NCBI GenBank assembly: GCA_977862235.1
Contig: OZ374560.1
Coordinates: 2,108,001-2,172,000, forward strand
Reading direction: 5' to 3'
DNA length: 64,000 nucleotides
DNA from: Dudresnaya verticillata
Taxonomy: Eukaryota
Shown here piece after piece: positions 5,900-46,423 of this stretch (its first letter is position 1; the number at the start of each line of letters is the position of its first letter). The notes under the pieces were generated by a model that was given only the letters and a program-made list of their open reading frames with translations, ran no database searches and had not been told where the DNA came from. The position numbers and the translations under genes are program-made.

Positions 5900-7160
5900 G
5901 TTGACTACATCTTCTAGGAAAGCTTCTTTACAGGATACAATGACCAGATAGGGTAGACTCCAATGGTTGTTCTCGGAGTTCACAATGGTAGATTAGCAGA
6001 CTACATTGGATTGGATACGTGTCCGTCTCGTAGGGCCAGACGTTGTGGATTTGGGATGTGGAGAGCGTCATGCCGATAGGCGTGCCCTTGTGCGGTCATT
6101 GGGCTTGGGTAATCTGCGTGTCCATGACCCCGGTCGGGAGGCACGTTGCGTTCGGCTCTAGGGACAGAAGCTACGGGTGTGGGACGCGAGGAATGGCAAG
6201 CCCGTGGATGAGCAGCTTCGCAGTCACACGGATTGGGTGCGTCGGCGGTGACTCCAGACAGACAAAACATTGTGTCCAGCTCGTTGGACTGCACGGTGCG
6301 TGGAGGTGTGGAAAATGACGATCGACAAACCCATGGGAGAGTCATTGCGCGGTCACAGGGATTCAATATGGACCACGGCGGTGACCCGAGAGTGGCACAT
6401 CGAACCCGACTCGATGGACAAGTCGGTTCAGGGGCGTGGGATGCAGAGAGTGGCAGGCACATAGGTTAGCCGTTACACAGCAACACAGGTTATCTGGGGT
6501 GGTTGATGGTGACATCGGATGTGAAGCGTGTTGTGTCCTGCCCATATGGTGTGGCGGTGCGAGTTTAGGACTTGTAGAGTGGTATCCCCGTGGGTTAGTC
6601 GCTGTCTAGTCAAAGTGCATGGCAATGACCCCAGATGGTCAGCGATATGTACCCGGCTCGAAAGACGCGACTTTGCGGGAGTTGATATCAGTGGATGGCT
6701 GCAACTGGTAAACCCGTAGGCGAGCAGATGTGCGGTTAAACGGGGTGGGTGCAGTACATTGCGGTGGCCAAAGATGCTATGGGAGTCGCATCGTGTCTGG
6801 TTCGGACGATAAGATGATGCGAGTGTGGCATACAAGGACTGGGAAGCCCGTGGACGAGCCGGTGACGTTCTTTTAGCTGTTTCGAACGTCAAATTTGCTG
6901 GGGAGCGAATAGTAAACTCTCACATCGGTTTTATGGGGAAAATGGAGCGCTACGTTGAGATGATCGAACGTAGACTGTGTGAGATGGAGGCCTCAAGTGG
7001 AAGAACACGTGAGAAGGAACAGATGCTGATGACCTACGGAGGCGGAGGGCCCAAGAGCAGGTCTGCTACTAGCATTGGTATAGGCGCGCGGGCCGCTCGG
7101 TGGTCCTTGAGGAGGGTGGACATGTGTTACCGACGTTGCCGACAGCCTTGGACCGGCCAG
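5900..7160 (+). pseudogene. WD40-repeat protein pseudogene
   Basis: Repeated WD40 pieces with frameshifts and stops: LWIWDVES..PIGVPLCGH, VTPDRQNIVSSSLDCTVR, GESLRGHRDSIW, WDAESGRHIG. Confidence 0.85.
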
Positions 7161-9446: not shown

Positions 9447-9966
9447 TGTAGTGCAAACGTCCTTGACGGAACACCGTCGAGCAGTTCGGGGCTCGGTGGG
9501 TAGCGACGCCCCTGGCGGAGCGTAGCCTCGCCTTGGGCGGCTTGTGATAGAGCAGTTGACACGCCTTGGGCGGACTGTAAACGCCCGAGGCCGAAAGGAA
9601 GAACAAAAGAGAACAAAAAGGGAACACGTCAAAGACGGGTAGAGACGTGGAAGCACGGGAGGTAGACGCTTAGCCGTAGGCAGCGGTAGGGTACGCGCGT
9701 GCTGAACAGGGAAGTCTGGACCAAGGCCGGCTTGCCGGGAGTTTCCCGCAACGTCTGGGACGGATCAACTAACTATAGAACTAACTAGCGGCGCCGACGC
9801 GTGTGTAGGCGCCGCGCGGGAACTCGGGACACCTGTTGTCCCGAGGCGCGTCTGACAGATCCGTCCTCAATGAAGCCGAGCTCCTGACAGATCACATGTA
9901 GCTTCCCCACTCGAGTCTTTACACCTACACGTGGATATATTACAGCCGCACGCGCCCCATTGTGCG
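9447..9966 (+). repeat. Truncated LTR-family insertion inside Copia RT
   Basis: Starts TGTAGTGCAAAC. Homologous in reverse orientation to 33685-34504 and 32275-33616 (shared GGCGGACTGTA.ACGCCC, CCGGCTTGCCGGG, GCGTCTGACA). Lies between RT segments LQMH and FVNNEKRHFVYRL. Confidence 0.8.
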
Positions 9967-11777: not shown

Positions 11778-12449
11778 GAGTCCTGGAATGTGTACGAATT
11801 GGTCATTCGGATGTTGACATCACGGTCGCCGACATTAGCGACACACAACAAGTCACCAACGGCAACAACTGGAGACTGGTTGCCGTTCCTAACCATTACA
11901 GATGATGGGCTTTGACTGATATTCTGGGTAATGAATTGCTCTGAGTTGTTCGTCATATGAGAGGAGCAACCGGAATCAATATACCATTCATATGGTGGCG
12001 AGTCAAGGACAGTAGTGTTAGCGGTTGCACATTTTGAGATGAACGTGATGCAATTTGACCCACTAGTAGCGGTGTCAGAACACAGATTTCCGGGTTTTCA
12101 GAATCTGTGTTCCGAATCAGTCTGAAAAATGTTAATGGAATGAATATTTCTATATCGCATTAGACTGGGGAGAGGGAGCTGAGAAGAATTGTTAAATCTG
12201 TTTTGGGATAGCATGCACGGTTGCGGAGTTACAGCATGCCGCATATACGGGTAAATGCCCCCGAAACTTTGGTGAAAGTTTCGAAACTTTCGGAATTTCC
12301 GAATTAAAATTTATCCAGAAATTGCACTGCCGCCTGCTGCCCTCCCGGGCGCGCCTGGCAGCGCACCGACGCTCGTGCTTCAGCACGCTTGGCCCCGCCC
12401 GCCGCATCCCCGGCCCGCCCTGAGCTGTGTTCAAGGGCGCAGTGTCTCC

Positions 12450-12957
12450 CCGCACGATTGGTACTGCTTGGCCGCCAGGGTAAATCTGGGGTAACCCAGT
12501 CGTGCGCGACGCTCACGCACCCACGCGCTGGTACCAGTACCACCCCTTCCCATGCTCATCATTCCACTCCAAGGTCCACTGCGGCGCGCTCCTCGCACAG
12601 CACCTCCTCCCCGCATGCCCTATCAAATTTCACCTGCGCCTGAAGCTCACCACGTCCCGCCGCTGCCAACATCCCCACCCCGCCGCGCACCTCGCGCACG
12701 AGCTTTACTGCGCATCATCGTGCATTAACCCCAACACGCCCCGGATATCAAGCTTGATATCCTTGTACTAGGAAATGTGGTCGTCGTCGCAAGATTTCAG
12801 GGGCATGCTGAAGGTCCGCGCCGCACCCATCGGACTACTCTACCAGCCTGCAGCCCTGCTCTGTAACTTGAAGGTTTGTCTTAGACAGGGTGGACAAGTT
12901 GCATCTTACTTTGGTTGCAAAGCCCCATCACTGGAATCTTACGTAGCTTCACCATAG
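12450..12957 (+). pseudogene. PIF/Harbinger-type DDE transposase remnant (C-terminus, internally deleted)
   Basis: QDFRGMLKVRAAPIGLLYQPAALLCNLKVCLRQGGQVASYFGCKAPSLESY resembles the conserved end of DDE_Tnp_4 transposases. Confidence 0.7.
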
Positions 12958-13229
12958 GAAAAATAAAGTAAGCCGTACTACACTCCTCGACCGCCCGCCC
13001 GAAGCGCAAACGGACGAGGAGTGAGGACCAAGTCCACTCTCGCTCCGCTCGGCACTCGCTCCGCTCGGCGCGCGGACATGGGAAATCGCGGACGGGGGAA
13101 GCGTGCGTTTTGGGGGTGACGGAGCGATTTGACACCACTTGCGGGACGTCAAAGGCGTTGGAAAGCGCATTTGCGACCAGAGTAGAAGCAGACACTTTAC
13201 GGAAGCTTCGCCGCGAGTGCTGCAAGCAC

Positions 13230-14280
13230 ATCCACTAAACCTTTCCGCTCCTGCATCTATTTCTTCGTTCCTCTACCCCCACAGCGCCTTTCATCTCATC
13301 CAACTCGAGGCGGCGCTTCTGCAGGTGCTCTTGAGCTTCGATCTGCTGCCGCTCCTCGCGCTCCCGCTCTAGTTCGAAACGCTCTTCCTTCAACTTGAGC
13401 CGCATTGACTCCACCTCTCAACGCCGAACCATTTCGTCCATCATGACCCGGCGGTCATCATTATCAGAATCGTACCTTGCGCGCGACTTCCGCACAGACG
13501 CGGGGGCAAAAGGCAGTTCACCGTCGCCATCAGTCTCAGCTATGCGCTGCAGGGGTTCTCTGTGAAGTGCAGCATGCCTAATCGTTTCTCCAGCCGCAGA
13601 GATGCGTTGTTCTGCGTCCGCTTGGATATCGCGCTCTTGCTTTCGTTGCTCTTCCATTTTATCCCTCACCAGGATGTGATTGTCTAACAGCATCTCGTGT
13701 TCCCCAACATCCTCTATTATTCCAGAAGCAGCCTCGTTCTGCTTATTGGCGTTGCGCATTTCGGCGACAATTTTCTTGAAGCAGTCACGAAGCGACTTCC
13801 ATCCGGGTTTGGCGACGCATGCAAAGCTACCGGCGGAGCAGCTTGCAGGAAGAGCTTGAGGGCTTCCTCGTAGAGTGAGGTCGCTTTTCTATGTGCCGCG
13901 GTATGTGCGTTGCTCGCAGACACGCATTCCAGCAAGAGGAGGTTCCATGCCGCTGAGTAGCTGAAGCGCTTGATACGAGGGGAAGCGGCGGTGCTAGATG
14001 CTGCAGCGGATGTGTCCGGCGTTAGCGCCGGTGGGGAAGGTGTCGGGACAGGTAGGGAGGTAGGTTCTGGGAGCGGCGGAGCTGTGGGGAGGGCCGCTTG
14101 AGTCGGGGTTCCTCCACAGGAGGGTGAGGATGGTGAAACTTCGACTATGTCGCGGGAAGTGTGACGGATGTGATGGCGCGGGGAAGGGGTTCGCTGCAAA
14201 GCACTTGGCGCCAAAGGACAGAAATGCGTTTCATTTGAGCGCGCCTGGAAAGAAAAATGAATCGTCTCGTGAGGCAGCAT
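13230..14280 (-). pseudogene. Harbinger partner (Myb/SANT-like + coiled-coil) protein, disrupted
   Basis: Convergent with the transposase remnant. RFSYSAAWNLLLLECV..AHTA, frameshift near 13800, then EAASGIIED..LLD..EEQRKQER..AAGETIRHAAL and an E/R-rich coiled coil past a stop at 13418. Confidence 0.6.
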
Positions 14281-14343
14281 TTCCTTTATTTTGTAAACGC
14301 GACATACGTGTATCAGCTTTTATGCGGCAAGTCACCATTCTCA

Positions 14344-14658
14344 CTACACTATTAACTCCTCTTCATCTTCGCTGCTTAAGGGGTTCGTGCAGCTCCATAG
14401 CTCCGCGCACACCGAGCGCACAGCTCTGGCGACAGCCGTCCTAACCGCCGTCGCTTCCCACCTCAAGTGTCGGTAGCAGTGCATGAGGAATTCGAATTCC
14501 TCCATGCACTCGCGAGCCTCCCTTAAACAGTCCTTGACGATGTCGCGCTGGGCGCGTACATCAATCCGAAGTAATACCACTTGTTCGTATGCTTGTCGGA
14601 TTGAGTTGCGGGTCATGGTAGGTGTTGGCTGTGCAGGGGGATGCAGGTCGACTTCCAT
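14344..14658 (-). CDS. Small hypothetical helical/coiled-coil protein (104 aa)
   Basis: ATG-started ORF with heptad-like amphipathic pattern. Similar in character to the ORFs at 26252-26790. Confidence 0.45.
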   Translation of the reverse strand: MEVDLHPPAQPTPTMTRNSIRQAYEQVVLLRIDVRAQRDIVKDCLREARECMEEFEFLMHCYRHLRWEATAVRTAVARAVRSVCAELWSCTNPLSSEDEEELIV

Positions 14659-15254
14659 CTTTAATACTGTGGACTGTGGACTGCCGCAGACACAGCCGGT
14701 CGCCTGGTGCAGTGGGAACCAGTACCTGAGCAGGGGTTGGGGGCGTCAAGTCAGCAGATAAGTGCTAACAGTAATGGAGTGCCTTTGCTGCTCATCTACA
14801 CGGAAACGTCCAAGTCCTGCCATTCGCTTTGCCCTTCGCTAAAGGCAATGTTTCATTGCGCCAATGCCTCGGTCTGTGCACCCTGCACCAGAATATGCGT
14901 TGTACATCCTCGTGAAGGAATCGGGCATGCTCGTATGTCACCGTGATGTCGTCACAGTTCATTTCTGGGGATGCAGATACCTCATACTAGGTAAAAGATG
15001 GACAATGCAGTGGAAGGGGATTTCCAGGAGCCTTTAATATCTGGGAAGAGGAAAAGAACCCCTGAGCTCTCAAAGCAACGAAACGACAGACTACCCAATC
15101 GTTACTACCTTTTCTTATTTGTGGTAGTAGTACTACTGCTGCTAAGACCTTCACGGAGCGCCTCATTCGTATATTCGAGTCAAATTGTTGGCCTGAACTG
15201 TGAGATGCCTGACTTGCAGCAACCGCATCTCCCTTGCGGTGTTTTCATTCATCT

Positions 15255-15701
15255 CTACATATCTGGTCTTGAGTAATAGACGGCAGAACCGGTCCAAATG
15301 AAAAACCTCTTCTCCAGCCCCGTGGACTGTCTCAGATATATAAGATTCCAGTAACAGAGCATTTCCCCTGTATAGCTTCCCTCCTTCACCATTCGGACTT
15401 TTCGGCGTAGTAGGCGATACAATTCGCTAAGACTCCTTGTCTCGTGTCTGTGGTTTCGCGCTTCAGCGTGCGACAGATTCTGGCAGAAACGTTGAAAAGC
15501 TTCACTGTCCCTGCCCTCGACCAGTTCGATGCCTGATTCACTCAAAGCTTCGTGAGCCCACTGCCTCGACTTTGGGGCCATCTTCATGGACAAACTCCCG
15601 TCAAGTGTTTTGAACATGGCATCAAGGCGATCCTCAATTGACTCGTCCTGGCATTTTCCATCGAATGGTGCCCCGTCGCGATCCATGCTAACAATAGACA
15701 T
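15255..15701 (-). CDS. Hypothetical protein (~148 aa)
   Basis: Globular-looking composition from MSIVSMDRDG. No family recognised. Confidence 0.45.
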   Translation of the reverse strand: MSIVSMDRDGAPFDGKCQDESIEDRLDAMFKTLDGSLSMKMAPKSRQWAHEALSESGIELVEGRDSEAFQRFCQNLSHAEARNHRHETRSLSELYRLLRRKVRMVKEGSYTGEMLCYWNLIYLRQSTGLEKRFFIWTGSAVYYSRPDM

Positions 15702-16528
15702 GGTTGCTGAAATGTTTGGTTGCATAGACGAGGAGCGCTTTGTGCAACATGCAACAGTATCCTTGCTGCAGCAACTAAGTTTTATATGACCCGTAAATCC
15801 ATGTCCACGCTTTTTCTGCACAAGAATGTTACGAGGAGCAAACTGACCGCAACAGTTGCGATGTTCTGTTGGCGGGAAGTGCTCTGTGTCTGACGCACAC
15901 GTTATTATAGTATTACGGATGTTGTTGGATGACGAACACGGGTTAGAAAATGGAATACTATGGGCAGTTACACCACTGTACGGTTTTAACGGAGCGGGGT
16001 CTCTTAGGGACAAATAGGGGTCGAGACGCTTGACCGTATTAACGTTATGCCTGTACGGTTCCTATTGAACATCATGGCCATGGATGGCGCTGAGGCCCTC
16101 ACGAATTTTTGTTATAGCAGCGAGTGTCTGCTGAATCATCAGGGGTCGTTGGGGCCGTTCCAGGTTTATCTGCACAGCTCAATACCACGCGTAAATTATG
16201 ATGTCACCTGACTAATGACGTAATATACTAATCAAACTGTTACGAAGACGACGGAAATTGATCCACAATACGACGATGCTAGTACAGAAACTGATCCCGT
16301 CACCCTGCTGTAATCCGTCAGAGGATCCAGAGACTGTCGTCCGAGTAGTAGACGTACTCGTCCCCATGAAACAAAATTGTCCTATACTGTTCCGTATGAT
16401 GAACGCAGTCGTTCTATTACAGGAGCAGTGAAATAATGAATGTAATAGTAGTCACAAATGGTTAGGTTGCACACTCCCACTATTAGGACACAGGAAATAG
16501 AACTTTATCAAACTGTTGGCTAACGCCA

Positions 16529-17071
16529 TCACTCCAATGCTTCTTTCAGGTCTTGTAGCCTTTTCTTCAAGAATGGCACATGAACGCAGCACCCGGTGCT
16601 ACGTCTAATCAGGTTCGCTAGGCGCCGCGGATTTCCCTCGGACTTATCTCCCTCACCATCCATGCATCCGCAGTGAGGGCCCTTCCATAGGTCCAGCAGA
16701 GTCAGCCTTTCTATCCTCCGCCGCTCATAAAATTTCTTTCCTCTGTAATTGAACTTATAGTTTCCGTCGAAGTACTGCTGAGAGACGGAGAAGTCTGCAC
16801 TTTCAATTGCGCTGACGCCGTACATCCTTTCATGAGACGCTTTGAAAATAGACGTGTCATAGAGACGTATTCCTAGCTCTTCCAACCCGACGATACGCAT
16901 CTGGCGCTGTCTTGCCCGACTGACTATACCCACAAACCTCTCCTCTCCCATACGCTCGACTGCCTCCTTTAAGCTCTCTCCTCCCGAGTTCTTAAAATCG
17001 TGTAGGTTCAGGGTCTCGCCTTGTAAGTTGTCGACTTCTTCTCTCCCTCCAGAAGCGTTGTGCGACGACAT
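16529..17071 (-). CDS. Hypothetical protein (~180 aa) with SWIM-like CxC...CxH motif
   Basis: ORF from MSSHNASGG (AAAATG context). C-terminal PHCGC...GCCVHV. Divergent from the MTase gene. Confidence 0.55.
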   Translation of the reverse strand: MSSHNASGGREEVDNLQGETLNLHDFKNSGGESLKEAVERMGEERFVGIVSRARQRQMRIVGLEELGIRLYDTSIFKASHERMYGVSAIESADFSVSQQYFDGNYKFNYRGKKFYERRRIERLTLLDLWKGPHCGCMDGEGDKSEGNPRRLANLIRRSTGCCVHVPFLKKRLQDLKEALE

Positions 17072-17805
17072 TTTTAACAGTAGTACTCCACGGAATAGGT
17101 GCAACCTCTGGGCATTCGCTAGAATGAGTACGGGTGGCTGTGAAACGCCTGGTTTCGAGATTCCAGCGCTCATGATTTGTGCACAAAAGTGTGGAGAGTC
17201 CGACTTTAAGGGTGCAGGCATTTCTGCACAAATGTACAGAGAGGCATCAAGATACGCAGTGTCACCATAGTCACCCGAGACAGTTTCGGTTGGTGCCGAG
17301 TTGGCGCCAACGCGTGGTCTAACCTTGAGTGTGGATAGGAGCTCAATACAAGTTACTATACCTATACAATCGTATGACCTGCGACTCGCAACCATGCGCA
17401 TGATTTGGTCGTGAATATCCCGCAGCCTGTTTTTCGGGTAGCATAGGACTACTGTACGGAATGCAGCCCGGATCTCTCTTGTACTGCAGACCCCCTCATA
17501 GTAGTCACATCCTTGTCGGGTCTCGCAGTCCTGAGACTGGAGAGTTTAGTACCGAGACTGTAGCATTATCTGTCCACGATTGGTATGAGCGGAATCCATA
17601 CACAAGCGGATGAGGTCAATGACAGCGGCTGAGTCACATGGTTTTAATTTAATGCACATTCTTTCTCTCATGCAGTGGGAAACGTTGTACATGCATGTAT
17701 GGAGCAAGGGCGGAAAGCTGTGTCCGACAGAGGCAGTAGTCAGAATTCATTCAGACATCCCATCCAGAACTTCGGCTTACCGGTGCACACGATAGCCTGA
17801 GAAAT

Positions 17806-20740
17806 ATGCCACCGAAAAAGAAGAAGGGAGTGGCGGTGAGGTCTGTATCCAACACAGGACATACCTCAGCAGACGTAAGAGCGCCTGTATCATCTGGGAA
17901 TGATAGAGTTCTGTTCGGAGATGTCGTTAATGGAGCTACGCACAAGCGAGTCGACCCTCGTTCATGTCTCCCGTTGACCTACGTCCGCCCGATCTGCAGA
18001 TCGGGCGTCGAGCGATTGAAGCGCATTTTCCGGGGGACCGACCGGTACAGTTCAGGGACATTGAAGTCTCCCGTGGAAGGAGCTCCGGACTCTATCGGTT
18101 ACGTGGCTGGTAGTGATATGCCTGTCGTTGTGCCATTGACAGGGGCATTGAGAAGCCGTGTGTCCGATTATTTCAGGTCACAAACAAGGAAGGACTGTAC
18201 GCGTCGTTCCGAGAAAGAAGTTCAGGACATTGTGTAATCGAGGAGGAAATGGTACGGAGTAGTTGATGGAATGCATAGATTGGCAGCTATTCGTGAGCTG
18301 CTTGAAGAAAACTACAACCAGTGGAAAACCTTTGACTGGCCTGTGCTGGAGCTGAACCCGCGGACCGACCTGGTGGTCCTGAAGCAATTCGCTAGACATC
18401 AGAATCGTAAACACGAGGTAAACTGCTTCGTGGAAACTACCCTGTATTACACATTGAAGGGTCTGAAAGATGAGGCTGATCGCCTTCAAGCGGAGGGAAA
18501 TGGTATCAAGCCGACAGCAAAAGCGGTTGCGTCCGCTTACGATGTGGGTGTTCATATGCACGAGAACACAGTGAGGCAGACAGCGCAAGTAGCTCTCCGA
18601 CTAAGTCATCGTGTCATCGATGCGATAGGGGAGATAATGGGGGAAGAAATACCGCAGCTTGCGTTGGCTTCACGAAATGGAAGAACTGCTAAATCAGTAG
18701 CAGACGATGCCCTGATGTCGTCGATGGACTGCCGGATTTTCCGGAAGTTTATTACTCTGAACTCACTGAAGGCTGCCACAGAGTTCATGAGCGCGGGACA
18801 AATGAGTGGCGTGGTACATGATGAGGGTGTGGAAGTCCAGGTCTCGACACTCTACCGCATTCGAGAAGTATGCAGGAGGAACGGGTTCAGGCCCGTTCTT
18901 TACGGGGTCACCAAATCAGAGTTCGGGAAGGCTAAAGATGCGCTAGCAGAGGTTCGCAAATTCGAAGGCCTTCGTGAATCTGAGGACTGGCCGGGTCCCA
19001 TGGACACGATGCGGACAAATATTCTGCGATCCCAAAAGTTTGATGGCGATATCATGCTTAACAGGGGCAACGACACATTGATTTTGCAATGCATTCTGGA
19101 TATGTACAAGGACTGCTGTCCGGAAGAAGCACCCCTGAAGATTCACAAGTACTCTTCTGTTAGAGATAGGAACAGAAAGGAGTGCGATGAAGAGAAGAAT
19201 TTAGACCGGGAGTGTGTGAATGAGATTACGACTGGAGTGCAAGATTCAGGGGGGGTCAATTCCGATCAGGTAACAACTGCTGGAAACCAGGACCATCCCT
19301 CTGACGGACAGATCGAACACGATGACGTTCCCTCTCCTTCTGTGAACGTAGATTCGTTACCTTGCAGTCGAGACCTCGGTTCTACCGGAGACCATCACAA
19401 CCATGATGCAGAAGATATGCAGGGGTCGGCTGTAAAATCTGCTGTGACGGTGAGCACGGAAAAATCGGAGAGGCTGGCTGTACGTGGGGACAAGAACGGA
19501 CCTGACGACCATTTGCAAGCTGATATCTTGAAGTCGTACAGAATAACCTGCCATCAGATGCGGTGGCAGGTATACAATAAGAATATTCGCGAGGGTGTTG
19601 GTGACCTATACGACATAGTTCTTACCGACACACCATATGGAACGCCTGCATCACAGTCTCGTGCAGGGAAACAGTACGACAACTATATGAGTGATTCTGA
19701 AATATCCGAGCTTGCAGAAATGTGCAGGGAATCCGTTGTACCGGGAGGGTGGGTGTTCATGTTCGTGTCCTACCAGACATTCGAACCTATAAGGCAGGCT
19801 CTTCTGAAGGCCGGATTCACTTGCCCAACGTACACCTTTTCGATTGCAAAGGATGCACACACGGTGCAGGAGAGGCGAGGAAATGACTGTCCCCAAAATG
19901 GCCACGAAATTGCCGTCATGGGAAGAGCCCCAGGACAACACCCCAACGGATTTAAAGTGGATCTTCGAAGCCCATATCAATTAGTGAAGGCTTCGGAAAA
20001 GAGAAATTTTGCGTGCATGTCTCAAATTCCCGTTTCTAAGAAGAAGCTCCTTAAACCGGGTACAAAATCCCCGGTGCTTACTGAGGAGAAGAATGTTCAG
20101 CTGTTGGTGGAATTGTTGACGACCTTCTGTCCTGAGGGGGGGCATTTTGGACATGCATGCTGGAACGATGACAGCTGCAATTGCAGCCGTGCAGACTGGT
20201 AGGAAATGCACCTGTATAGAGCAGAGCCTACAGACATACAGACTTGCAGTTGCACGCCTGAAAAGGATAGCAAGTGATCATCGCAAGTTGTCGGAAGGAA
20301 TGGAAGGAACACCACTGTGTCATGGTACAGCGGAAGAGGCCCTGGCAGAAGACCAGGGAGCGGATGTGGAAAACCCGCAACAGAAACTGCTCAGGAATGA
20401 GGCGAAGAAAAATTCGGATTTTATTACTGGCGGCGATGCTGTTGTTCTGTACGTTGGGAAGAACGCTGTTGGGAAGGCAAAAGTCCAATTCGGGGCAAGT
20501 CCTGACGAAAACGTTCGCAAGCAGATTCATCTGAAACCCCTGTCGGAATACGAAAAGCCAGGACAGGAACTCATTGCGTTTTACGCCTTCGAATGTGATT
20601 CATCCTTTGCCACCTCAGCATACCCGTATAACTTTCATGTCCCGAACGGCCGCCCTTCCACGATTCTAAGTGAGCTAGACGGCGTTTTTGCATGGGATAT
20701 CCATGCGATGAAAGCCCAGGAGCGGTGCGACCAGAAATGA
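17806..20740 (+). pseudogene. ParB-like domain + beta-class N6-adenine/N4-cytosine DNA methyltransferase + Tnp1/En/Spm-like C-terminal domain (one stop, one frameshift)
   Basis: NLS MPPKKKK. In-frame TAA at 18235-18237, then WYGVVDGMHRLAA (ParB DGxHR). Motif IV YDIVLTDTPYG (19627-19638), then VPGGWVFMF, EKNVQLLVELLTTFCPEGG. Frameshift in the G7 run near 20140 leads to ILDMHAGTMTAAIAAVQTGRKCTCIE (motif I). Motif IV precedes motif I, which is the beta order. Confidence 0.85.
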
Positions 20741-21191: not shown

Positions 21192-21469
21192 GCAATCGCG
21201 TGAAAACCTATCCAATATTATGGAGAATGACCAACAGATTTTCGGAAAGCCGCACGTAAATTTATTAAACAGCACATACTCTGTACGAGATCTGAAAACC
21301 TATGATAGGTTTTCCGAAACGTGAGTGCTCATGTGCTGTTTAATCGCTTTTTGAATCTCACTGGTCGAAAAGCTGTTATAGGTTTTGCGATTGCCTCGGG
21401 CCAAACATCTTTTTGATAGAAACTACGTTTGCTCGACTCCAGGACCTATTCCATATTATGGAGAATGCA
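21192..21469. repeat. Nested inverted/direct repeat cluster (fold-back)
   Basis: 14-bp IR 21264-21277/21331-21344 and 10-bp IR 21294-21303/21305-21314, both centred on 21304. Outer imperfect IR 21192-21211/21378-21394. Direct repeat ATATTATGGAGAATG at ~21216 and ~21453. Confidence 0.8.
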
Positions 21470-21699
21470 AGATAGCTTTTCAGGTCGCGCGGCAGAACTC
21501 TCCAGGATTTTTTCCACGAGATTTACCGCTGATTCCCTTCTGGGACTTTTCTTTCGGAACACCTGGGTCCCTCCACCCGTCCGGTTGCTGCCCAGCGCCC
21601 TCCCAAACGCAATCGCAACCGAACCGCCGCGTTTCGCTACAACCCCCTCCCGCCGCCCCCCGCGACTGGCGCCAGATCGTGCCCCACCGCACCCCACCG

Positions 21700-23899: not shown

Positions 23900-26190
23900 A
23901 GGTTATTCTTGATGAAATCCATTCAAAGTATCCTATCACCGGTAAAGGGTGTGGAGCTATCCTTCGGAAAGAGAGCAGTTACGTGGGGACCGACTGGGTT
24001 GTGAGTTGGAAGTAGACAGGGGAAACGCGTGGCTGCAGGCGTCCCGGATAGATGAGATTGTGTCGGAGATGGCGCAGAGGTCAGCGGCGAGTGGTTCTGG
24101 GAGCGACAGGGCTTGGAGAGATTGGGCGAGGGGTCGAACTTCCTCGCGGGCAATTGGGCAGGGCAGCGGAATAGGGAACGTCCCCAGGTGCCAACGAATT
24201 GATAGTTTCCTGTCTCTGTGGTATGGTAGCTCCAGGGCTGGTGGTAATCGATGCGGCTGTACATTGGGGCAGGACGTCGACCACATAGCGCCGCACGCCA
24301 TTCCTGTAGCAGCAAGTCGCGGAGTTCTCGCCGCGCTCGGGATTTTTTGGATGCATCCCAGCAAGCAATACGCGGTGTGGCCTGGAGAGCAGAAAGCGTT
24401 CTTCGGGCGTACCAGGAGGAGGAAGCGCTGCTAAGCCGGCGAGACGTTGTAGCGCAGCGCAGAAGCTCCGTTGCACGATCTTCTGGCGAAGGAGAGGAGG
24501 TTCGAGGCGTAATTCCGCTTAATTACTCTTAAGAGGGCTCTGAGCTTCCGCAAGCGTTGGGCAGACATTCTAGACGACCTCTGGGAGACTAGAAGGCGGA
24601 AGAAAGTTGTGTCCAAGCTGTCAATCGCGCGACATACGGCTGGGATGTATGGGGTAATGGCACAGCCGTGTTCGTAGACGGGGCGAACAAATGTATGGTA
24701 GATATGACGAGCAGCGTGTGCGGGCATCTCGGAGGAGATGTGGCCTAATGAGACAAGTGTTCTAAGTTGGCGCTTCGCAGTAGCTATGCGTTGTAGGGTC
24801 GCTGAGTCCAAAGCTCCCTCCGGCGAGATCTGGATGCCAAGATAGCGCGCGTCGCATATGACGTCGATTGGTTGGCCATCAATGAGGAATGTGGTTGAGC
24901 TAGGGCGTATGCGATGTCGTTTTGGGAGGAGGATGGCACACTTGGGGGCAGACCATTGCATTCCATTCTGTTCGGCCCATGCTTGGCATACTTTAAGCGC
25001 AGCTCGCAGCTTGGCCGGGTTGCCAACATGGAGAATACAGTCATCGGCAAATGGGCGACCCGGCGGGTTGTCGTCGGTGGACCCGAGTGCACTGCAGAGG
25101 TCGTAGGCCAGGGAATCGATGAAGAGGTTGAAGAGGATTGGACTTAGTGGGGATCCCTGTATCACGCCGCGTCGTACTTCTGCACTCTCGTTACTTGCAT
25201 CATCTGCCGTGCGGATTTGTATTGCCACGAGGGTGTTAGCGATCATGGGAGTCAAATGCGGTGGCAGCCGCTCTTCACAGCATGCGAGTAGCTTATGTCT
25301 GTCTACTCGGTCATATGTGTAGTGCAACCCTCCGAATGAGGGTCGCAACCAACACAACCCACGAGTCCGACGTGGGAGGGTAGCCGCGGAGACGCGTGTG
25401 AGCGTGTCAGTGCGTGGTAGGGTAGAGCAAGGGAAAGGCCCCAGTGTGCGGACTATAAACACACACCAAAGCCGTGTGAGCACGTAGTGAGCCAGGAGAT
25501 GGGAGCACCGGCACAGCAAGCGTGTGAACACGAAGGTAGAAAGGGTGTCAGCACCACAGGCATACGTAGCCCAGCTCCGCGATGGCTTCACTCGCCAAGC
25601 GCACGGAGGTAGGGGGTACCCTAAGTGTGGAGCCGAAGCTTGGTTGGGTTTACTGTAGGAGGTCGGTCCTAGCCCCTTAAGTCCCACCGCCGGCGGCGGC
25701 GCCGCGGCGGTGGCGACTAGGGCTACCGTACACTAGCAAATAAACTAACACTAGAGTACAATAAACTAACACTACAGTAGCACAGTGTACCTACTGTACG
25801 TACACCGACACCAGCACGCTGTAAGACTTGTAATGACGCGTGCGTGTGCGCGTGTGCACGTGTCACGCGTGTTGTGCGTGTCTTGCGCGCGCTCGCGTGG
25901 CGGTGGCTGTAAGGCGGCGAGTGCGGCCCTGTAAAGGCGACGGCGGGGGAAAACCCCAAGTGTGGGCGCGGGCCCACTGTAGTGGTCAGCCACGGTCCAA
26001 TGGGAAAGCCCAGCTTGGCGGCGCGCGTCGCGGACGCGCGCGAGCGATCACGCGCAAAAATGGGGTTATCAACCCCCAGCTCGGAGAGGGCCTGGGCGTT
26101 GCACCACAATATGCGCTCTTTAGGTCCAGTACACCAATGTAGTCATCTCCAGCAATGCTTGCTGCAAGCGTGAGTACAGCAGCCATGAAG
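23900..26190 (-). mobile_element. 5'-truncated LINE-type RT element interrupted by a solo LTR
   Basis: VLDLKSAY | DRVD..RLPPHL, RRGVIQGSPLSPILFNLFID, FADD, RYLGI, YHTFVRPVYEHG. 3' end approximate. Confidence 0.9.
25318..26108. repeat. Solo LTR (791 bp), TSD ATATG
   Basis: TGTAGTGCAAC...GTTGCACCACA termini. ATATG at 25313-25317 and 26109-26113. Removing it restores KSAYDRVD in the LINE RT. Confidence 0.95.
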
Positions 26191-26790: not shown

Positions 26791-27553
26791 AAGGTAGAGT
26801 CTGGAACGTTTGTCTCACGGCAAACTTCAAATTTGCAGACTGGTACTTGATGCACAGGTTGGTGCATGTTTGCAAACTGGTGAAAAGCCAGCTGTAGCCC
26901 ACGGCAGCTCATTGGATTGACTTGTCCTTCTTCTGCAAGAAAAATCACGGGGTATCGAGACGTAAACATCAACGCAGCCGGCAGCCGGGGTCGTACTTCT
27001 CAGCCCCTCTCGATGCTATTTCTTATCCTTGACGCCCATCAATACTACCCGCTTGTGGTCTCATGGCGGAATAGAGCAGTCTGCAGGGCGTACCCTTGCA
27101 ATACCGAGTACTGCTTCTTGATTGACGGGACTCGAGATTCGCGACTTGTCCGTTCTGATTGGTAATATGGCACGCTCGTCTCTCGAATCAGACTGTTTTG
27201 TTCGCACTGGCGCTACAGTGTATGGCGGAATGGAGTGGTGCATACAGAGCAAGAGGGAAGCCCTTCCAATACCAGTCGTTTTAACTGGGATCCGTAGCAA
27301 CTGTGGGCATGCGCAAGCCTGTCATGCAGAACGCCCCACCGCCTCTGGAACAGTATTATATTGGTGTCGTTTCAGAAGCGCCCTCGGCCCTCCCGAGTAT
27401 TTCAGCTCTTCAGAGCAAGTAGCGCACAGCTATCGCGCCCTAGCCGGAACATCTATTTTGTTCCTTCACTTCACCCGCCCTGAGTGCAAGGAGCATCTTG
27501 CACTAGTGAGTTGCAAAAGGCTCAGACTCCCCTGCAGAAAGGGGTAGTAGGAC

Positions 27554-28814
27554 ATGGCCCAAGCCTCATCTGGGCAGGTTTCGAAAGCAGCAAACGTTCC
27601 AGTTCAGAACGACGACGACTTCGGCGATGAGCTGCTTCCCCGGAACAAAGCCCGGCGCACGAGTCATGCTCACTCTCAACGGGGAACACGTTGCTACAGC
27701 AACCCTGCTACGACCTCACGATTTCAGGGAGGGTGCCGTTGATCCCAGTGGTCGATTCAGCACATACCTGCACGGGCGCAACCTTGGGCCTCAACAACGT
27801 GATGGAGAAGTATGGGTTGTAGTTCACCTCGTGCGATGCCTCCACAACTGCAATTCCTACGAAAACCCGTTCCAGTGCAAACCAGGCAGTACGCCTTGTC
27901 CGGAGACACTGAGTCGAATGCAGACTGGAAAACACGCCTGGGACCTATTCCAGATTGAGGATCTCGTAACCATCTACAATACAGAGCGCAGAAAAAGCTC
28001 AGGTGCAACTGTCTCCGGAGTGGAAAAACGTGCGGTGGCTGACGCTAACCCACCAACACCCCCTCTGCTCAGGGTTCGCAAACCCGCTCCTCACCCAAAA
28101 CAGCAGCATGATGCGGAAGAAATGGCAGCGGTGAACAGCCCTTCAACACCACCACCAGAGAAAGGCAATGAAGAGGATGAAGTCACAAAACTTCTGCAAT
28201 ACACACCTTTACGCCGGCCACCTATGCGTGAACGACCCCAGAAACCACCCAAGAATAACGTCCCGGACGCCTTACCAGTCTCTTCGGCCCCAGTGTCTCT
28301 TGAACCCACGACTACACCTGTGGAAGAGAGAGATCCTCGTGTAGGTGTGACAGACAGAGTCGATGCAGATCTGAAACAAAACTCTGCTAGGGCTGTCGGA
28401 TCTATTCCTTCTCGAGGAAAAGGAGCAAGCGACGAAGAGAACTGTATCATGCCCCAGCCATGCCCTGCACACAATGTCAGACGTACGCCTGAAAGCAGTT
28501 CGGGTTTTAGTAGTGGCGCACCATAACCCGACCCTGATGCTACCCCGGCATTGGCCGCGAGTACTAACACAAAGGGTGACGTGGAACGAACGCCGGGTGC
28601 TGATGGCTCGGAAATAGAGCACGGTGAGGAGCAATCAGATGCTGCGACGTTGGATCTGGTGAGCGACGCAGAGGTGGAAGGTGGAAGTGATGGAATATTA
28701 GAAGACGAAGATACTGGAAGCGACCAGGAAATTGAGGACCTCACCAAGGACGCAGATTACATCGCAGGGCATTCGCGCGAAAACAGCGCAACGCTCACGA
28801 CCCCTCTGATATGA
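27554..28814 (+). pseudogene. Protein with N-terminal Tnp1/En/Spm-like domain and long P/E/D-rich disordered tail (disrupted)
   Basis: PGARVMLTLNGEHVATATL..YLHGRNL..VWVVV..NPF..ETLS..AWD aligns by eye with the C-terminal domain of the MTase ORF. Frameshift near 27630 and in-frame stop at 28526. Confidence 0.6.
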
Positions 28815-32274: not shown

Positions 32275-33616
32275 GCTTGCGGCTGTAAGGAGTGTAGATC
32301 CACGCGTGTGCGTGGTTGGACTCACGTGGTGAACTACGCCTGGTTCTGTCAGATGCGCGGCTGCATGCCGGACGCAACGTGTCAGACGCGCCTGGGGACA
32401 ACACGTGTCCCGAGTTCCCGCGCGACGCGTCCGCACTGTGGTATTGACGCTCTGCGCAAAACGACTCCGTGGTCTACGTGAAAATAATCGAAAAATACGA
32501 ATTTCGAAGTGACTCCGTGAATGCGCGCGCCACGATGGCAAACCTATTACAGTGCGCATACTGTGAGCACGCCACGATGGCATTCGCATTACAGCACGCA
32601 CGCCATACGAAATCGCTGACACCTCCGGACGAATTCCGAGCTGACTTCGTGATCGCGCGCGCCACGATGGCATTCGCATTACAGTGCGCACCCGATACGA
32701 AATCGCTGACACCTTCGTGACCTTCCCGTTGTTTCCTGCGCGTAACGGCACCGAGGCCCACGACGCGCGTGCACCTCCATATGCATCGCTAGCGCACTTC
32801 GTAACCGCCACCATACGTGAGACGACCGTTCGTTGGCACCGAGGCCGTTACGAATCATTCGAGTACGAACCGTCTCCCGCGTTGACGGGTATTCGTGCCG
32901 ACGTAGTATTACTTAGCCAGTCGTCTGGCACAACCTCCGAGGGTTTCCGGTAAGCGACTAGCGCCCGGACCTCGGAGTCTTCGGTGAACGCCTGTTTCTT
33001 CGAGTTCGCTGTCTTCGTCTGCGTGACCGCGGATACGGTCGAGCCTCGCTTTCGATACCCCCGCGCACCCGGAGTCATCCCCGGTGATCGATCGCTCGAG
33101 TTCTCCCTTCCGCACACGAATACGTTGACACCATGGTCCTTTGTGTTGGTCGCTCCGCTCTACCACGCTACCACCCCTTTTCCTTTCTTCGTTAGGCTAC
33201 GAGGCCACATGTTAGGCTCCGAGGCCATTACTTACAGTGTGAGACTTCCCCGCGTCACCGTGGACTTCGTTATACCACACGCACCGCCGCCGCTAGGTAG
33301 GTGTTCTATACTTACGTGATCCGTCCCAGACGTGAAGGTAAAATCCCGTAGGCTTCTCCGCTAGTGCGTACCTCTCACCACTACCGAAGGCAACTGCCCA
33401 GCTCCACCCGCCCTTCCGCTTCAGCCTACGTCCACAACGTGTTCCTCTCTCTTTCCCTCTCTATCTCTCTCTGGTTTTGCCTTTACCGCCCAGGGCGTTT
33501 ACAGTCCGTCCTTGGCGAGTTTCCCTGGCTCTGCCACAACCTCCGCTACAAGCGGCTACCCACTGGGTAGCGAACAACCCGGAGGTTTGAACCGTCTGAA
33601 GAAGTTTTGAACCACA
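32275..33616 (-). repeat. LTR-family sequence with internal tandem repeats
   Basis: Begins TGTGGTTCAAAAC on -. Shares blocks with 9447-9966 and 33685-34504. Internal 90-bp-period repeat at 32529-32715. Confidence 0.6.
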
Positions 33617-33684
33617 CCAAGGAATAACACGAAACACGGCGAACAATGTGAGGGTAGCGATGTGGTAAGCCGAAAAGTAAATGA

Positions 33685-34504
33685 TGTGGCGCACGGGGTC
33701 CGGGCTCTTATTTACTCGCCATGGGCGCACCGAGGCCGCGTCAACCGACGGACGGTCGCCTGAAACGGCTAGTTCGCCGTTGGCGCGTACACGTCATAGA
33801 CGATTCAATCGACGGACGCACGGGAGACGTGCCCCGCGACACGCGCGCCCGACGCACTGTACGGCACAACGCTGTAGAGCGGGTCTGGATGATGCATCGG
33901 GATCAACGAAGTGTAAGGGGCTTGACTGTCAGCTTGGCTCGAATCCCGATTGAATCCGGATCCGACATCCGGATCGGACTTCGGGATCCGCTGTAATGGA
34001 GGCGCGCCTGTAATACTGTCGTTAATCCGGATCCGAATCCGGATCGCCTACAGCACCGCGCAAGCGCGCTCCTGTAAGGCCCACACGACGGCGTACAGCT
34101 GCTGCACCGCCCCGGACGTGTCAGACGCACCCCCACGCGACACACGTCCCGGGTTCCCGCGCACTACGTCATGCAGCCGCCGCCCCGCGGCCCCGTAGCA
34201 TTACTTAGGTACCTCGTCTAGGACGTAGCAGTAAAGCCCCGGCAAGCCGGTTTGGGTCTGGACTCCCCTTTCGCGTCGCGCGCACTCCACAGCTACCCGA
34301 AGGCCTAAGAGTCTGTCTACCCGCGCTTCCGCGTCCGCTACCGTTCTGGACGTGTTTCTTTTCGGGTTTTCTTCCCCTTTCTACCTACCCTTTGGGCGTC
34401 TACAGTCCGCCCCTGGCGTATCATCGCCCTACCACTACGCGTTGCCGACGCGCTACCCGCTGAACTACTCAGGCGTGCCAACGTCAACGACGATTTGCAC
34501 GACA
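33685..34504 (-). repeat. Solo LTR (820 bp), TSD AATGA/AATGG
   Basis: TGTGGCGCAC...TTGCACGACA termini. Homologous to the 9447 insertion. Confidence 0.75.
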
Positions 34505-35295: not shown

Positions 35296-35660
35296 CTAAC
35301 CCATGTCGTGATGAAACAAAAACTAATAAAGACCATAATAATGGTTATTCTAAATGTCGCATAGCTGTAAGATCAGCTGTGCCACGCACGCGCAGCTGTA
35401 AAACCAGCTGCGCCACGTGTGCACCGCTGTGCCACGCTGTCAGCCGCTGGCGCCGAAGCCCCGCTGAACTGTAAGGAAGTGCGCAGTGGTGCCCGCGCGT
35501 GCACGTGTACGCGTGTGACACTGAAACTCTCGTGCAATTTCTACGTTTATTGTTGTGTCGTGTACAGCACCGTCTAGTGTAAGCGGCGATCGAACATCCT
35601 GCTGTCCCGCGAGCCGTGCGCACGCACTCCGGTGTAGAGCCGTTGAGTGAGTGACACGCG

Positions 35661-36403
35661 TGTGGTGTAGTGAAAACCCACGAACTCCGAGACGGACAGC
35701 TGGCCTGACTTTCCTGACGAGAGCAACACTACCTCCACGGGGTGGTAGAGCAGTTCGCACCGTAACGGGAGAACAGCTAGCTAACCGAGACGGATATTGG
35801 GAAGCAACAGACAAGGGGGTGGTACAAGTGCCGGGACAGACTCCGTAACGGTGGTGGTGGTAGACCGCAACGGGGTTTTAGGGGTTTAGGGTTTTAGGGG
35901 TTTGTGCCGGGACAGACTCCGTAACGGTGGTGGTGGTAGACCGCAACGGGCTCGGCGCGGGGAAAAACGTAAAGGATTGGGCTAAGGTTGCTTACCCGTT
36001 TACCTTAGGAGCCGCTGCGGTGCCGCCCTGATATACAAGTCAGGGTGGCACCGAGTGGTCCGGTCCGTGGGGGCCAGACCCTAGTGGTCTGGTCCTATGG
36101 TGGAATCGGCCCTGCTGGTCCCAATCTCCGACACGGACATGCGCAGCATTCTCATTGGCTGGCGCGCTACTCTACACACTGTACAGATACTCACTAAAAA
36201 TAAAGAATAAATACTACAAATACTCCGGTATGGTTGGTGCGCATCACTGCTGTACAGCAATGCGTACCGGCGTACAGCAATGCGCACAACATCCGACACG
36301 GTTACACGCTGCCAGATCATCAGCGTGGCGTATTGCCACATCATCCGTTACGATTGGCTCGCCGTCGGCGTGTCGCGTGCGCGCCACGGCTCACTTCACC
36401 ACA
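35661..36403 (-). repeat. Gypsy 3' LTR (743 bp, includes telomere-like insertion)
   Basis: TGTGGTG...CACCACA termini. PPT AAGGAGGGGGGTC adjacent on - (36404-36416). Confidence 0.95.
35875..35903 (+). repeat. Interstitial telomere-like repeat (TTTTAGGGG/TTTAGGG)
   Basis: GTTTTAGGGGTTTAGGGTTTTAGGGGTTT between two identical 47-bp copies (35828-35874, 35904-35950). Absent from the sister LTRs. Confidence 0.85.
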
Positions 36404-36535
36404 GACCCCCCTCCTTAAATGGCGCCACGTCCTCGGGCGCCCACCGTCACGGATTACCTTTGCTGCGACACCCACACACAATGATACGGTATCGTGCGCA
36501 ACTTTTCCTCCTCCTTCGTGCGCGCTTCTCCCCCC

Positions 36536-39384
36536 ATGGCAGGGGAGAAGGCTAAGCGCTCACCGTCGCCCTTTCAACCGACAAGGCGTTCCCGCGCTGC
36601 TTCCACAACTGGGGCGCAGGTCGTGCGAACCGTGACGGATGCTTCGACGCAAGCGCCGGCTTCTTCCTCAGCGGCAGCGACGCGACCCGCGACGGGCGGT
36701 CGTATGAGCATCGCCGTGACGGAACCTTCACCGGCTCCATCAGCGAGCCGAGGGTGGTCTGTCTATGATCCGAATCGGTTTGCTGCGAGCGCTGTCACAA
36801 GGCCCTTGCTACCAGGGAGTGCAGAGACTCACCGTGACGGAGAGGCGCCAACCAAGGAGCGCGATGATGCGTTCCGTCGTGGTGGCGAGGAGCTCAACTT
36901 GGCAGACCTACCGGCCATTCCGTTACGGACACCATCGACACCGGTATCGACGCCGAGTGGTAGGATGGCTTCCAGTCCTCATCCTTCCTCAAGTACACCG
37001 AGACGGATGCGTGGCCCCCCGCAAAGCAACCCACTTGCACCGGGGCCTTGGTGGCCGTTAGTGCATACCCGTGACGGAGAGGGCCCTGCCCCGAGTGGTT
37101 ATTGGCCGGGACACCATTTCCACCATCGCGCGGGGCGCCCGGCTAGAACCGATGCGGAAAGGGCTAAGATTAGGCCCCCGATGACGGTGGACCTCTTCAT
37201 TGAGAAGTATCCAACCGTCTTGGAAGCGAGAAGGTACAAGGCCGTCATGGCGCAACCCTTCAAGGCGAATCAACGCATTGGCGTTGTTCCGAATCGGAGA
37301 GAGTTTGTGTGGCAAAGCCGATGGGTGCATGGCTATTGTCAAGCGAGGACCTCTACCGTTTCGGATTTGTTGTGATATCGCTGCCATGGGGAGGTAGGAT
37401 ATACCGCCAAGGTGAGTCACCTGTTGGGCACAGGTTTCCGTCTTCGGGGTGCGCCGGTCGGAGTGCAATTCATTTGCTTCGACCGCCCCTATGACCAATC
37501 GGTATATTGGTTCCGCTATGCCGATGGGTGGAAGGACGATGCTGCGACGGAACACCGTTTGCGAACTCGTTCCCGTGACGGAATACAGGTTGGCTCGCCA
37601 ATCCTGCATACTTGGAACACTAAGGAGTTCTTCCATCTTCCGTATCGGGTACGTCGTGAGTTGTACCTTACAGCTCCGTCATGGTGGGCGCGTTATGAGG
37701 TGACCCGTTGGTTGTCTGTCCCCACGCCGTCCGTCGTAGCGTACTTCTCGGCGGACTTACTCACCGAACGGGAGTGGAACGACAAACATCCGAACGGAGA
37801 ACGTCCCCCGAATCAAGATCAGCTCGATGTACTGTGGCGCATCTTCCGATCGGAATGGGCCATGCTGGTGCTCTTCTCGTGGCTCCAGGTGGCCTATTAC
37901 GGAGTTCGGTATAACACCAAGTTAGCTCACTGGCGATGCTTCCCACGGGATGAGGATGACCTGCCGGGAGGAGACTGTGGCCGTATTTTTCAACTTCCCG
38001 TAACGGTGATCGCCCTGATTCGCGAAGTCGGCGTAGCCGATTTAGTGACGGGGTCGGCATACCCTCTCCATCGGGTTGAGCGTCTTTTATCCGTACACGG
38101 AGAACAAGATTGGCAACGCACTCCGGGCTTCTTGGGGTATAATTGGGACGAGGACCGTGTCCTATCGGTGCCCCCGTTGAGGCCCGGGGTGGGTGAGCCC
38201 TATTTCCTTCATCGAGAAGATCCGCGTCCGGAATGGTTGGCCTTAGAGGTGCAGGCCCATCGGGACTATGCCTCTCGCCAAGCACCAAGGGATGCGTACC
38301 GTGACGGTTTGGATGGGGCTGAAGATTGGGGAAGCTGTCATGGGACAGCGGGGCGTCCGCGTACAATCGACCCACGCGATTCCGTTACGGTGAGGCAGCA
38401 AGAGGCTGACCCCTTCGTGGAAGACCAGGAGGAGGTCATGCCCGTGGCCTCAATGGCAGCGGGTAGCGAGAAGACACCCTCTCCAATCCTTCCGGTGGCC
38501 GCGACACCCACGTCGCGCGAGGTGGCTCTTGAGACTACTACTCCCGTATCGGATAAGACCCCAACACCCATAGGCGTGGTTGCACCGACCAAGGCGGTGC
38601 CCAAGCTTGCGGCACCATCCAAGGAGGGAGTCTCAAAAGAGCAGACCGTTTCGGAAGTGGCGCCGGATACTGTACCAGTGGCACTGTCTCCTGCGACGCA
38701 AATGCCTGTCGCCGCGGAACCGCCCCTACCAAGTGCTCCGCTGTCGGCGCCCACTCCCACACCAGCGGTGAGTGAGGCACCGATCACCGTATCGGCAGTG
38801 GCTGCAAAGCGCCCAAGTGTTGGGGCAGCTGGAGACAAGCCCTCGGTTCTTGCGTCAAGTCATGAACCGTTACGGAAAAGCGATATCGCCTCGCCAGAGA
38901 AGGACACGGATCCACCGCTGCGGAAGGACGTACCTTCACCCGAGTCGGGACCATCCGTATTGGTGGTTTCCTCAACGGAGCATTCACTCGAAGCCGGGGT
39001 TAGGGATAAGCCGTCGATCTCCCCGAAGGTAGAGCTTCAAGAAGATGAGGATCCCCCGTTACGGTTCCGGCTCATCTAGCCGCTACGGAAAGTGGGTTAC
39101 AGGTGCTGCGAGGCATTTGCCGTACGCAGCGCTTCCCATTGCCAGGATCCGTTCAGGAAGCGCTAACCCTAGCGGAGGGGCTAATGGAACAGGTAATTCA
39201 GCTCCGCTCAGTGGACCGTCGTCAGCGTCGGCGCATGGATAGTACGATTCGCGTCTTGGGAGACAATACGCAGCGCGTATTCCAATCGGATCCGAGTGGG
39301 GAACCCGGCTTACGAACGGGTCGAGGGAGCAACGAGGAAGACACAGTGGCCCCTGCTCCGAAACGGCGTCGACGTAACTCTTAG
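36536..39384 (+). pseudogene. Large antisense accessory ORF of the Gypsy element (~950 codons; one TGA, one frameshift)
   Basis: ATG at 36536. Same frame through TGA 37373-37375 to ~39055, then a shift near the C-run into the 39103-39384 frame ending PAPKRRRRNS. W/Y/F-rich globular core about 37050-38250 and P/S/T/A-rich linker. Confidence 0.75.
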
Positions 39385-39484
39385 AGTTACAGCTCGACGA
39401 TCTCCTTAACGGTTTCCATTATGCCTCGATCTTAGCTTGCGATAAACGTTGTGTGTTATCACACCCCAACGTTCTAACTGTCCG

Positions 39485-43753: not shown

Positions 43754-43797
43754 ACTCGCGAGAGGTGGAACGCCGTGAGGCGGGGATGGCGGCGCCC

Positions 43798-46275: not shown

Positions 46276-46402
46276 GATGCCTTAACGGAACAAAACGGTT
46301 GTTCTTGCTTGTCTATCCAATATTCCGTAACGGGTTGTCGGTACAGCCGAATTCCTACCGTAGCGGATTTCGACGGCTGTTTCTTCCAACCGTGACAGTG
46401 TT

Positions 46403-46418
46403 CTAGGTCGGGAGACCA
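46403..46418 (-). promoter_or_regulatory. Primer-binding site (possibly tRNA-Tyr)
   Basis: TGGTCTCCCGACCTAG lies 5 nt inside the 5' LTR boundary. It is complementary to a tRNA end ..CGGGAGACCA, as in eukaryotic tRNA-Tyr. The tRNA identity is inference. Confidence 0.7.
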
Positions 46419-46423
46419 AAAGA

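Follow-up and report, generated by a model that had tools for sequence, protein, structure and literature searches.

A broken ParB–beta-class methyltransferase gene in Dudresnaya verticillata and its likely origin in a transposon-borne family of DNA-adenine methylases

Fusions of a ParB module to a methyltransferase are known from phages and plasmids. A gene of this kind has now been analysed in a eukaryote, at positions 17806..20740 (plus strand) of a 64-kb stretch of Dudresnaya verticillata DNA (contig OZ374560.1, positions 2,108,001 to 2,172,000; hereafter the window), which raises the question of what such a gene once did and what brought it there. The initial annotation, made from the letters alone, proposed a DNA transposon that writes its own methyl mark. 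The reading favoured here, which we hold with somewhat better than even confidence, is that the locus is a broken copy of a ParB–beta-class methyltransferase gene, the intact form of which is likely a DNA-adenine methylase that giant DNA transposons likely carry as an accessory gene.

The pseudogene spans about 978 codons, and all of its features given below lie on the plus strand. A ParB/Srx-fold domain is followed by a helical domain, a linker, a beta-class N6/N4 DNA methyltransferase and a C-terminal beta domain. Three ORF pieces are left, namely 17806-18234, 18238-20142 (in the same frame, past a TAA) and a piece in a shifted frame that runs to the stop codon at 20738-20740. The first opens with an ATG and a basic stretch (PPKKKKG; 17806..17829), the putative nuclear localization signal of the initial annotation. 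The premature TAA (18235..18237) falls within the ParB domain, where relatives carry a residue and align without a gap, and an intron spanning the stop is thereby ruled out. The frameshift was placed by tblastn at about 20143, beside a run of seven G and just before motif I, and relatives carry one residue more than the window copy at this site. When the middle piece was used as query in a word-index search, the single protein found was P0001 (43% identity over 97%, E 5.7e-147), an intact relative of 1010 aa to which the three pieces match in order with E values of 3e-23, 5.7e-147 and 4e-29, far beyond chance; the family HMM also matches all three. Since the pieces are collinear with P0001 and the shift lies near 20143, they represent one gene with exactly two frame lesions, in agreement with the count first given. 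The 64-kb window holds one copy of the gene.

The inactivation had been thought recent. At the 156 columns that are invariant in seven relatives, the window copy deviates 19 times, motif IV and motif I being among the columns affected. In a leave-one-out comparison it departs at 20-24 of 163-175 columns, against 7-19 in intact members. Judged from the alignment, these departures fit modest, recent decay, which supports the earlier view. They also bear on the suggestion that the gene is alive and that both lesions are assembly errors, for which the G7 run adjoining the frameshift could speak. This is most unlikely: invariant columns have changed in both motifs, the departures exceed those of intact members, and a simple extra G would not explain a site at which relatives have one extra residue. 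Bacterial contamination was likewise considered and is ruled out by eukaryotic retroelements on both sides of the gene.

The methyltransferase domain occupies 19525..20281. Motif IV, here DTPY, lies at 19627-19638 and motif I begins at 20150 in the next frame, which is the beta order; the catalytic motif and the SAM-binding motif are therefore both present in the permutation that had been described. In P0001 DPPY stands at residue 637 and the SAM motif at 812, motif IV preceding motif I as in a permuted Rossmann fold. The SAM motif of the family reads D-x-[YF]-[AG]-G-T-[LM]-T and not the usual FxGSG. An amino-methyltransferase profile recognizes the intact relative, as P0001 matches PF01555 (N6_N4_Mtase) over model positions 2-220 with 45.9 bits against a cut-off of 26.7, whereas the broken window pieces alone reach 12-13 bits, below that cut-off. 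PF01555 was above the cut-off in 38 of the 47 full-length relatives scanned, and P0001 also matches PHROG methylase families (E 5.8e-22).

P0001 was modelled with AlphaFold2 from an alignment of 150 relatives (mean pLDDT 81.7, pTM 0.75) and compared with known folds via structure comparison, for which the lists of the best 50 matches were used. Residues 603-855 of the model align with CcrM at Z 24.3 (rmsd 2.8, 222 residues aligned), followed by the adenine enzymes M1.HpyAVI (Z 22.2-23.7), M.BceJIV (Z 22.9) and M.MboIIA (Z 22.1). The N4-cytosine enzymes PvuII and bdelloid N4CMT reach Z 19.6-20.9, and METTL3/MTA1 about 15. Among the structure matches listed, the fold is closest to adenine enzymes (Z 22-24), and this order of Z scores sets the methyltransferase apart from RNA or protein methylases, a grouping that the initial annotation had named as one that would count against its reading. 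The modelled fold, being nearest to CcrM-type enzymes, favours adenine as the likelier target, in line with the initial annotation. Like CcrM, M1.HpyAVI, M.BceJIV, M.MboIIA and M.RsrI (Z 20-24, rmsd 2.2-3.3), the domain has the permuted fold with DPPY before the SAM motif; unlike it, those bacterial N6-adenine enzymes lack both the ParB and the C-terminal beta domain, and identity to them is 14-20%.

The catalytic motif was followed through the family. Among 1.84 billion cluster representatives, 857 matched at E<=1e-3, of which 370 remained at 1e-10 and 130 at 1e-30. From the best 150 of the 857 and one further search, a set of 52 full-length proteins (at least 750 aa, cluster duplicates dropped) was drawn. 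The window copy lacks [DNS]PP[YFW], while its five nearest relatives keep it as DPPY. Because DTPY is found in none of the 52 full-length relatives, it represents private decay; of the two explanations first offered for this motif, decay stands and a family trait does not. DPP[YF] is kept in only 18 of the 52, and methylation is thus not universal in the family. The 34 relatives without DPP[YFW] include supported clades with EPPx (0.994), ALPS/xIPx/QxPx (1.0) and DPxQ (0.985) in its place. They have long open frames, and motif I Asp is kept in 33 of them, motif I Gly in 28 and the motif II acid in 33. Several of these clades look, from their sequences, like pseudo-enzymes.

Such motif loss is what a different account of the family would build on, in which the gene is also transposon cargo, with DNA or chromatin binding as its conserved job, the protein acting as a SAM scaffold, a reader or an inactive partner, or else placing another mark such as 4mC. 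At least three supported clades combine loss of the motif with long frames and SAM-side residues, and the N4-cytosine enzymes trail the adenine enzymes by just 2-4 Z units. Nevertheless, the window copy is nested in a clade (support 0.986; FastTree, midpoint root) whose five other members all carry DPPY and DGMHR, and Ser in the catalytic motif (SPPY), which marks N4C enzymes (PMC4738411, PMC8885841, in the portions of these papers considered), occurs in none of the 52 members. This account is therefore judged unlikely. Turning back to adenine methylation, we consider it quite likely that intact copies with DPPY have 6mA-forming activity on DNA.

The N-terminal part (17908..18420, mapped from P0001 65-232) was read as a ParB/Srx-fold core, and the DGMHR motif on which the initial annotation relied is present at 18265-18279. 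Four ParB/Srx structures match the P0001 model, each of them middling alone: 5k5d, a pNOB8-like ParB, aligns with residues 65-404 (Z 8.8, rmsd 4.6, 215 aligned), and the core matches 6ryk PadC (Z 7.0, rmsd 2.4, 97 aligned), 8qa8 KorB (Z 5.6) and 6ky4 sulfiredoxin (Z 5.5, 87 of 89 residues). In the Atlas, phage ParB/Srx clusters match at 0.90-0.92, PF02195 being assigned to 12% of the members of one cluster, and a viral fold search found phage ParB proteins (E 5e-4 to 2e-3). The ParBc profile gave no match in a Pfam search. The ParB module first described is accordingly borne out as a fold by structure and Atlas searches and not as a ParBc match, and a ParB/Srx fold at the N-terminus is supported by the model. 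With both folds visible in the P0001 model, the fusion of ParB to a beta-class amino-methyltransferase proved correct.

The DG-x-HR motif is conserved in the near clade of the window copy. Across the full-length set, DGxHR is intact in 13 of 17 members with the canonical catalytic motif but in 7 of the 34 without it, the region being absent from one member. A Fisher test gives p 2e-4, uncorrected for kinship, so that an association of the two motifs is suggestive only. The core is followed by a conserved all-helical domain (18421..19170; pLDDT mostly >90), which may be a DNA-binding part, and by a non-conserved linker (19171..19518) that is predicted to be disordered (pLDDT <50 at P0001 501-583) and along which relatives do not align. 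In joining a ParB/Srx fold to an amino-methyltransferase, the protein is like the phage and plasmid fusions, which are its likely ultimate source; it differs from them in the extra 250-aa helical domain, the long linker, the NLS-like start and the eukaryotic setting.

Resemblance to phage ParB/Srx proteins also leads to the proposal that the gene was cargo of an endogenous DNA virus or another non-transposon mobile element, and the best viral structure matches are indeed Pandoravirus and phage methylases (E 6e-13). However, these matches span single domains at no more than 20% identity, scans of viral contigs for the pattern gave no relative, and the flanks hold no viral hallmark family; a viral carrier is very unlikely. 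Phage records match the methyltransferase domain only, at about 22-26% identity. Relatives were not found in prokaryote genomes, viral contigs or metagenome contigs with pattern scans that are insensitive, and their absence there is provisional. Iyer et al. described eukaryotic adenine methylase clades, some derived from phage ParB loci, as well as ParB-terminase loci (PMC4738411); the passages of that paper considered here contain no description of the present ParB-methyltransferase family.

The C-terminal domain (20423..20716) comprises about 95 residues of beta structure, modelled at pLDDT ~90 (P0001 912-1008), and has no assigned family. It is recognized by its own HMM, built from 22 relatives, at E 6e-22. 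A stand-alone copy at 27627..27968 (plus strand) begins the ORF 27510-28526, which continues in low-complexity sequence; it was found with the domain HMM (E 1.5e-15) and by tblastn with 12 relatives (E 8e-10 to 7e-4). The second copy thus lies about 7 kb from the gene, in a second, unrelated ORF. Because the domain is present in 20 of the 52 full-length members (HMM seeds included) and also stands alone at 27627-27968, it is considered a mobile module. In P0017 and P0029 a Cys/His-rich, zinc-finger-like tail takes its place. The initial annotation had assigned the domain to Tnp1/En/Spm. This identity was not upheld, as a Pfam search at E<=10 assigned no family to the two window copies, nor to the domain in 11 relatives. 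The domain had no Atlas match and no row among the best 50 structure matches; these lists were filled by the methyltransferase, and the missing rows carry no information about the fold of the C-terminal domain. Its motif pattern presumably resembles the plant Tnp1/En/Spm domain, which we take as a lead only.

A published precedent for a methylase on red seaweed transposons exists. Petroll et al. described Plavaka (EnSpm/CACTA) elements of 17-19 kb with three accessory genes, of which PAG2 combines PF01555 with a SET domain and was proposed to be an N6-adenine writer, most of its copies being degenerate, while PAG3 combines a ParB-like domain with a 2OG oxygenase and lies beside inverted-repeat arrays (10.1101/2025.02.11.637652). 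According to the same text, homologues of the accessory genes pass between the Plavaka, Mutator, Zisupton and Fanzor elements found in red seaweeds. The caution in the initial annotation that such a gene may not be wholly new was thus well placed, since that paper already reports a PF01555 methylase on giant DNA transposons in these algae. Like PAG2, the present gene has a PF01555 DNA methylase domain in a eukaryote. Unlike the Bostrychia PAG2, it has no SET domain (PF00856), which was found in 0 of 161 family proteins (relatives from the best 150 of the 857) and in none of the window pieces. The text of Petroll et al., as far as considered, places ParB on PAG3 with the oxygenase, whereas here it is on the methylase itself, and mentions for PAG2 neither a C-terminal beta domain nor clades without the catalytic motif. 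The gene probably acts as PAG2 does, and a kinship between the two is probable. It is not filed as PAG2, because SET is absent and PAG2 was compared by description only.

Chondrus En/Spm families of 16-20 kb with 4-5 ORFs are also on record (Arkhipova and Yushenova, PMC6431247, in part). The portions considered of PMC12344493 and a Spirogyra preprint hold nothing specific to the ParB-methyltransferase family. A literature search whose scope lay outside the supplements of the Bostrychia preprint and Repbase did not find a ParB-methyltransferase fusion on eukaryotic transposons.

The distribution of the family is consistent with mobility. The 857 clusters, 130 of them below 1e-30, and a median core identity of 31% among the 52 full-length relatives suggest a diversity beyond what is usual for a single-copy gene; the window copy itself shares about 50% identity with its closest relatives. 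In 2 of the 3 90% clusters examined, intact and split proteins at 99% identity share the cluster, which fits young dead transposon copies, although the splits could alternatively be assembly errors.

A domesticated host gene has to be weighed here, with bdelloid N4CMT as the model. This host gene is a 4mC writer with SPPY and a chromodomain that silences transposons (PMC8885841, in part); like the present gene, it is a bacterial beta-class PF01555 enzyme that works in a eukaryote and bears a small additional domain at its C-terminus (Z 19.6-20.9), but its silencing of transposons, with SPPY and a chromodomain, sets it apart from the transposon-riding role proposed here. By analogy, the family would be of prokaryotic or phage origin and serve the host as an epigenetic writer, and the window copy would be a dead paralogue in transposon debris. 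The NLS-like start, the eukaryote-style add-ons with zinc-finger-like tails in two relatives, and flanks lacking a transposase or element ends would accord with this. Against it stand the great diversity of the family, the frequent broken near-identical copies, the sharing of the C-terminal domain with an unrelated nearby ORF and the published transposon-borne counterpart, and domestication is considered improbable. That the family is transposon cargo is, on the other hand, quite likely.

At the locus itself, the transposon-borne state claimed in the initial annotation is plausible on indirect grounds, although the flanks show neither a transposase nor terminal repeats. Pfam found no transposase, 2OG oxygenase or viral hallmark in ORFs of at least 70 aa between 11.8 and 35.6 kb, and stop-read-through frames at 14.9-17.7 and 20.7-23.5 kb had no transposase or 2OG match. 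Since PAG1 and PAG3 have no Pfam model, such a search of the flanks would miss them. No 14-mer inverted pair (at most 2 mismatches) connects 21480-21620 with 12200-17700; the ends may be lost, short or farther away. A divergently oriented minus-strand ORF (16529..17071, 180 aa from the likeliest ATG) is a possible companion gene, without a homologue or a convincing family or PDB match. Two candidates were rejected: inverted repeats at 9.5-9.9 and 32.3-34.4 kb, which as copies of a dispersed repeat are ruled out as element ends, and a MULE at 15255-16061, a weak match (E 0.053) that was gone on repeat search. The dispersed repeat, of about 300 bp, has at least four diverged copies (9544-9931, 32305-34435), one inside a Copia remnant. 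A degenerate minus-strand ORF at 12250-14320 shows a weak Myb/SANT-like (MADF) match (E 0.023), its end near 12274 is rich in palindromes, and it may be a Harbinger-type remnant.

About 460 bp past the stop codon of the broken gene begins an array of four inverted-repeat units in the order A-B-B-A (21202..21481), built on a 10-bp half-site and including a perfect 21-bp palindrome at 21294-21314. Five extra half-sites were counted where 0.45 were expected, a number reached in 0 of 300 resamplings; of seven other palindromes tested, one (39749, within a tandem repeat) also stood out. GC rises from 0.44 to 0.71 directly after the array, as at a junction. The array may serve as a parS-like site or represent a subterminal repeat of the CACTA type.

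The wider window contains a Copia remnant, LINE reverse transcriptases, a chromodomain Ty3 element and a WD40-repeat pseudogene (5900-7000). From these retroelements and pseudogenes it follows that the host is eukaryotic, as first annotated, and that the region is transposon debris. Long intronless ORFs are present, and CpG observed/expected is about 1, without CpG depletion. Together with a telomere-like tract described below and the published precedent, these features make a red seaweed host likely, on indirect grounds. The chromodomain Ty3/Gypsy element (35641-47098, minus strand) has LTRs that are 99% identical and several frame breaks, and a third, diverged LTR copy adjoins it at 47686-48314. 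The element also encloses two long ORFs (36485-39079) on the plus strand that run antisense to pol and match no known family. Within its LTR, a telomere-like G3-4T3-4A tract (35872-35903), similar to the Bostrychia repeat, is flanked by two identical 47-bp copies (35828-35874 and 35904-35950) and looks like a healed break or a captured telomere repeat. An intact-looking non-LTR retrotransposon ORF of 1005 codons with a reverse transcriptase occupies 50439-53456, and broken LINE pieces related to it lie at 1611-2577 and 24431-25732. Two related genes (61736-63415 and 56115-56708) encode cysteine-rich proteins that begin with a hydrophobic stretch and contain repeats of 74 aa (222-bp period); neither has a convincing Pfam family. 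A tRNA gene (Rfam RF00005) is found at 760-832 on the minus strand.

Transposon cargo that writes 6mA is thus preferred because PF01555 is found in relatives, the fold is of the adenine type, the family is diverse, split copies occur, PAG2 is a precedent and a palindrome array lies nearby. Weighing against it are flanks without a transposase, a PAG3-like oxygenase, SET or a TIR pair, together with the 34 of 52 relatives that lack DPP[YFW]. In the mechanism proposed, the intact protein would enter the nucleus, its ParB and helical domains would load on the palindromic array inside the element, much as ParB does on parS, and the methyltransferase would write N6-methyladenine on nearby element DNA. 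The mark could then label element DNA as self and tune transcription or transposition, the C-terminal beta domain serving as an exchangeable add-on. Every step beyond the architecture is one that we infer. That the target of methylation is the element itself, reached via the palindromes, is possible but somewhat short of an even chance. More doubtful, and put forward as a speculation, is a family of eukaryotic transposons in which a ParB-parS module of bacterial origin, repurposed and fused to an adenine methylase, places 6mA on the element's own palindromes, while catalytically dead versions have arisen repeatedly and serve as readers, as partners or as decoys.

The window copy itself is dead, and the general idea that seaweed transposons carry a methylase has been published before. 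Features that appear new are a methylase that itself bears a ParB module, a C-terminal domain that can be exchanged, a palindrome array next to the gene and the recurrence of pseudo-enzyme clades. The analysis yields intact DPPY enzymes, a ParB-type module missed by Pfam, a candidate binding array and repeated loss of the catalytic motif. According to Petroll et al., no transposons other than the VANDAL elements are known to place modifications on their own DNA (10.1101/2025.02.11.637652). If the speculation above were true, the family would represent an epigenetic system by which transposons mark themselves, with both writers and pseudo-writers. The finding bears on how red seaweed transposons escape or shape silencing.
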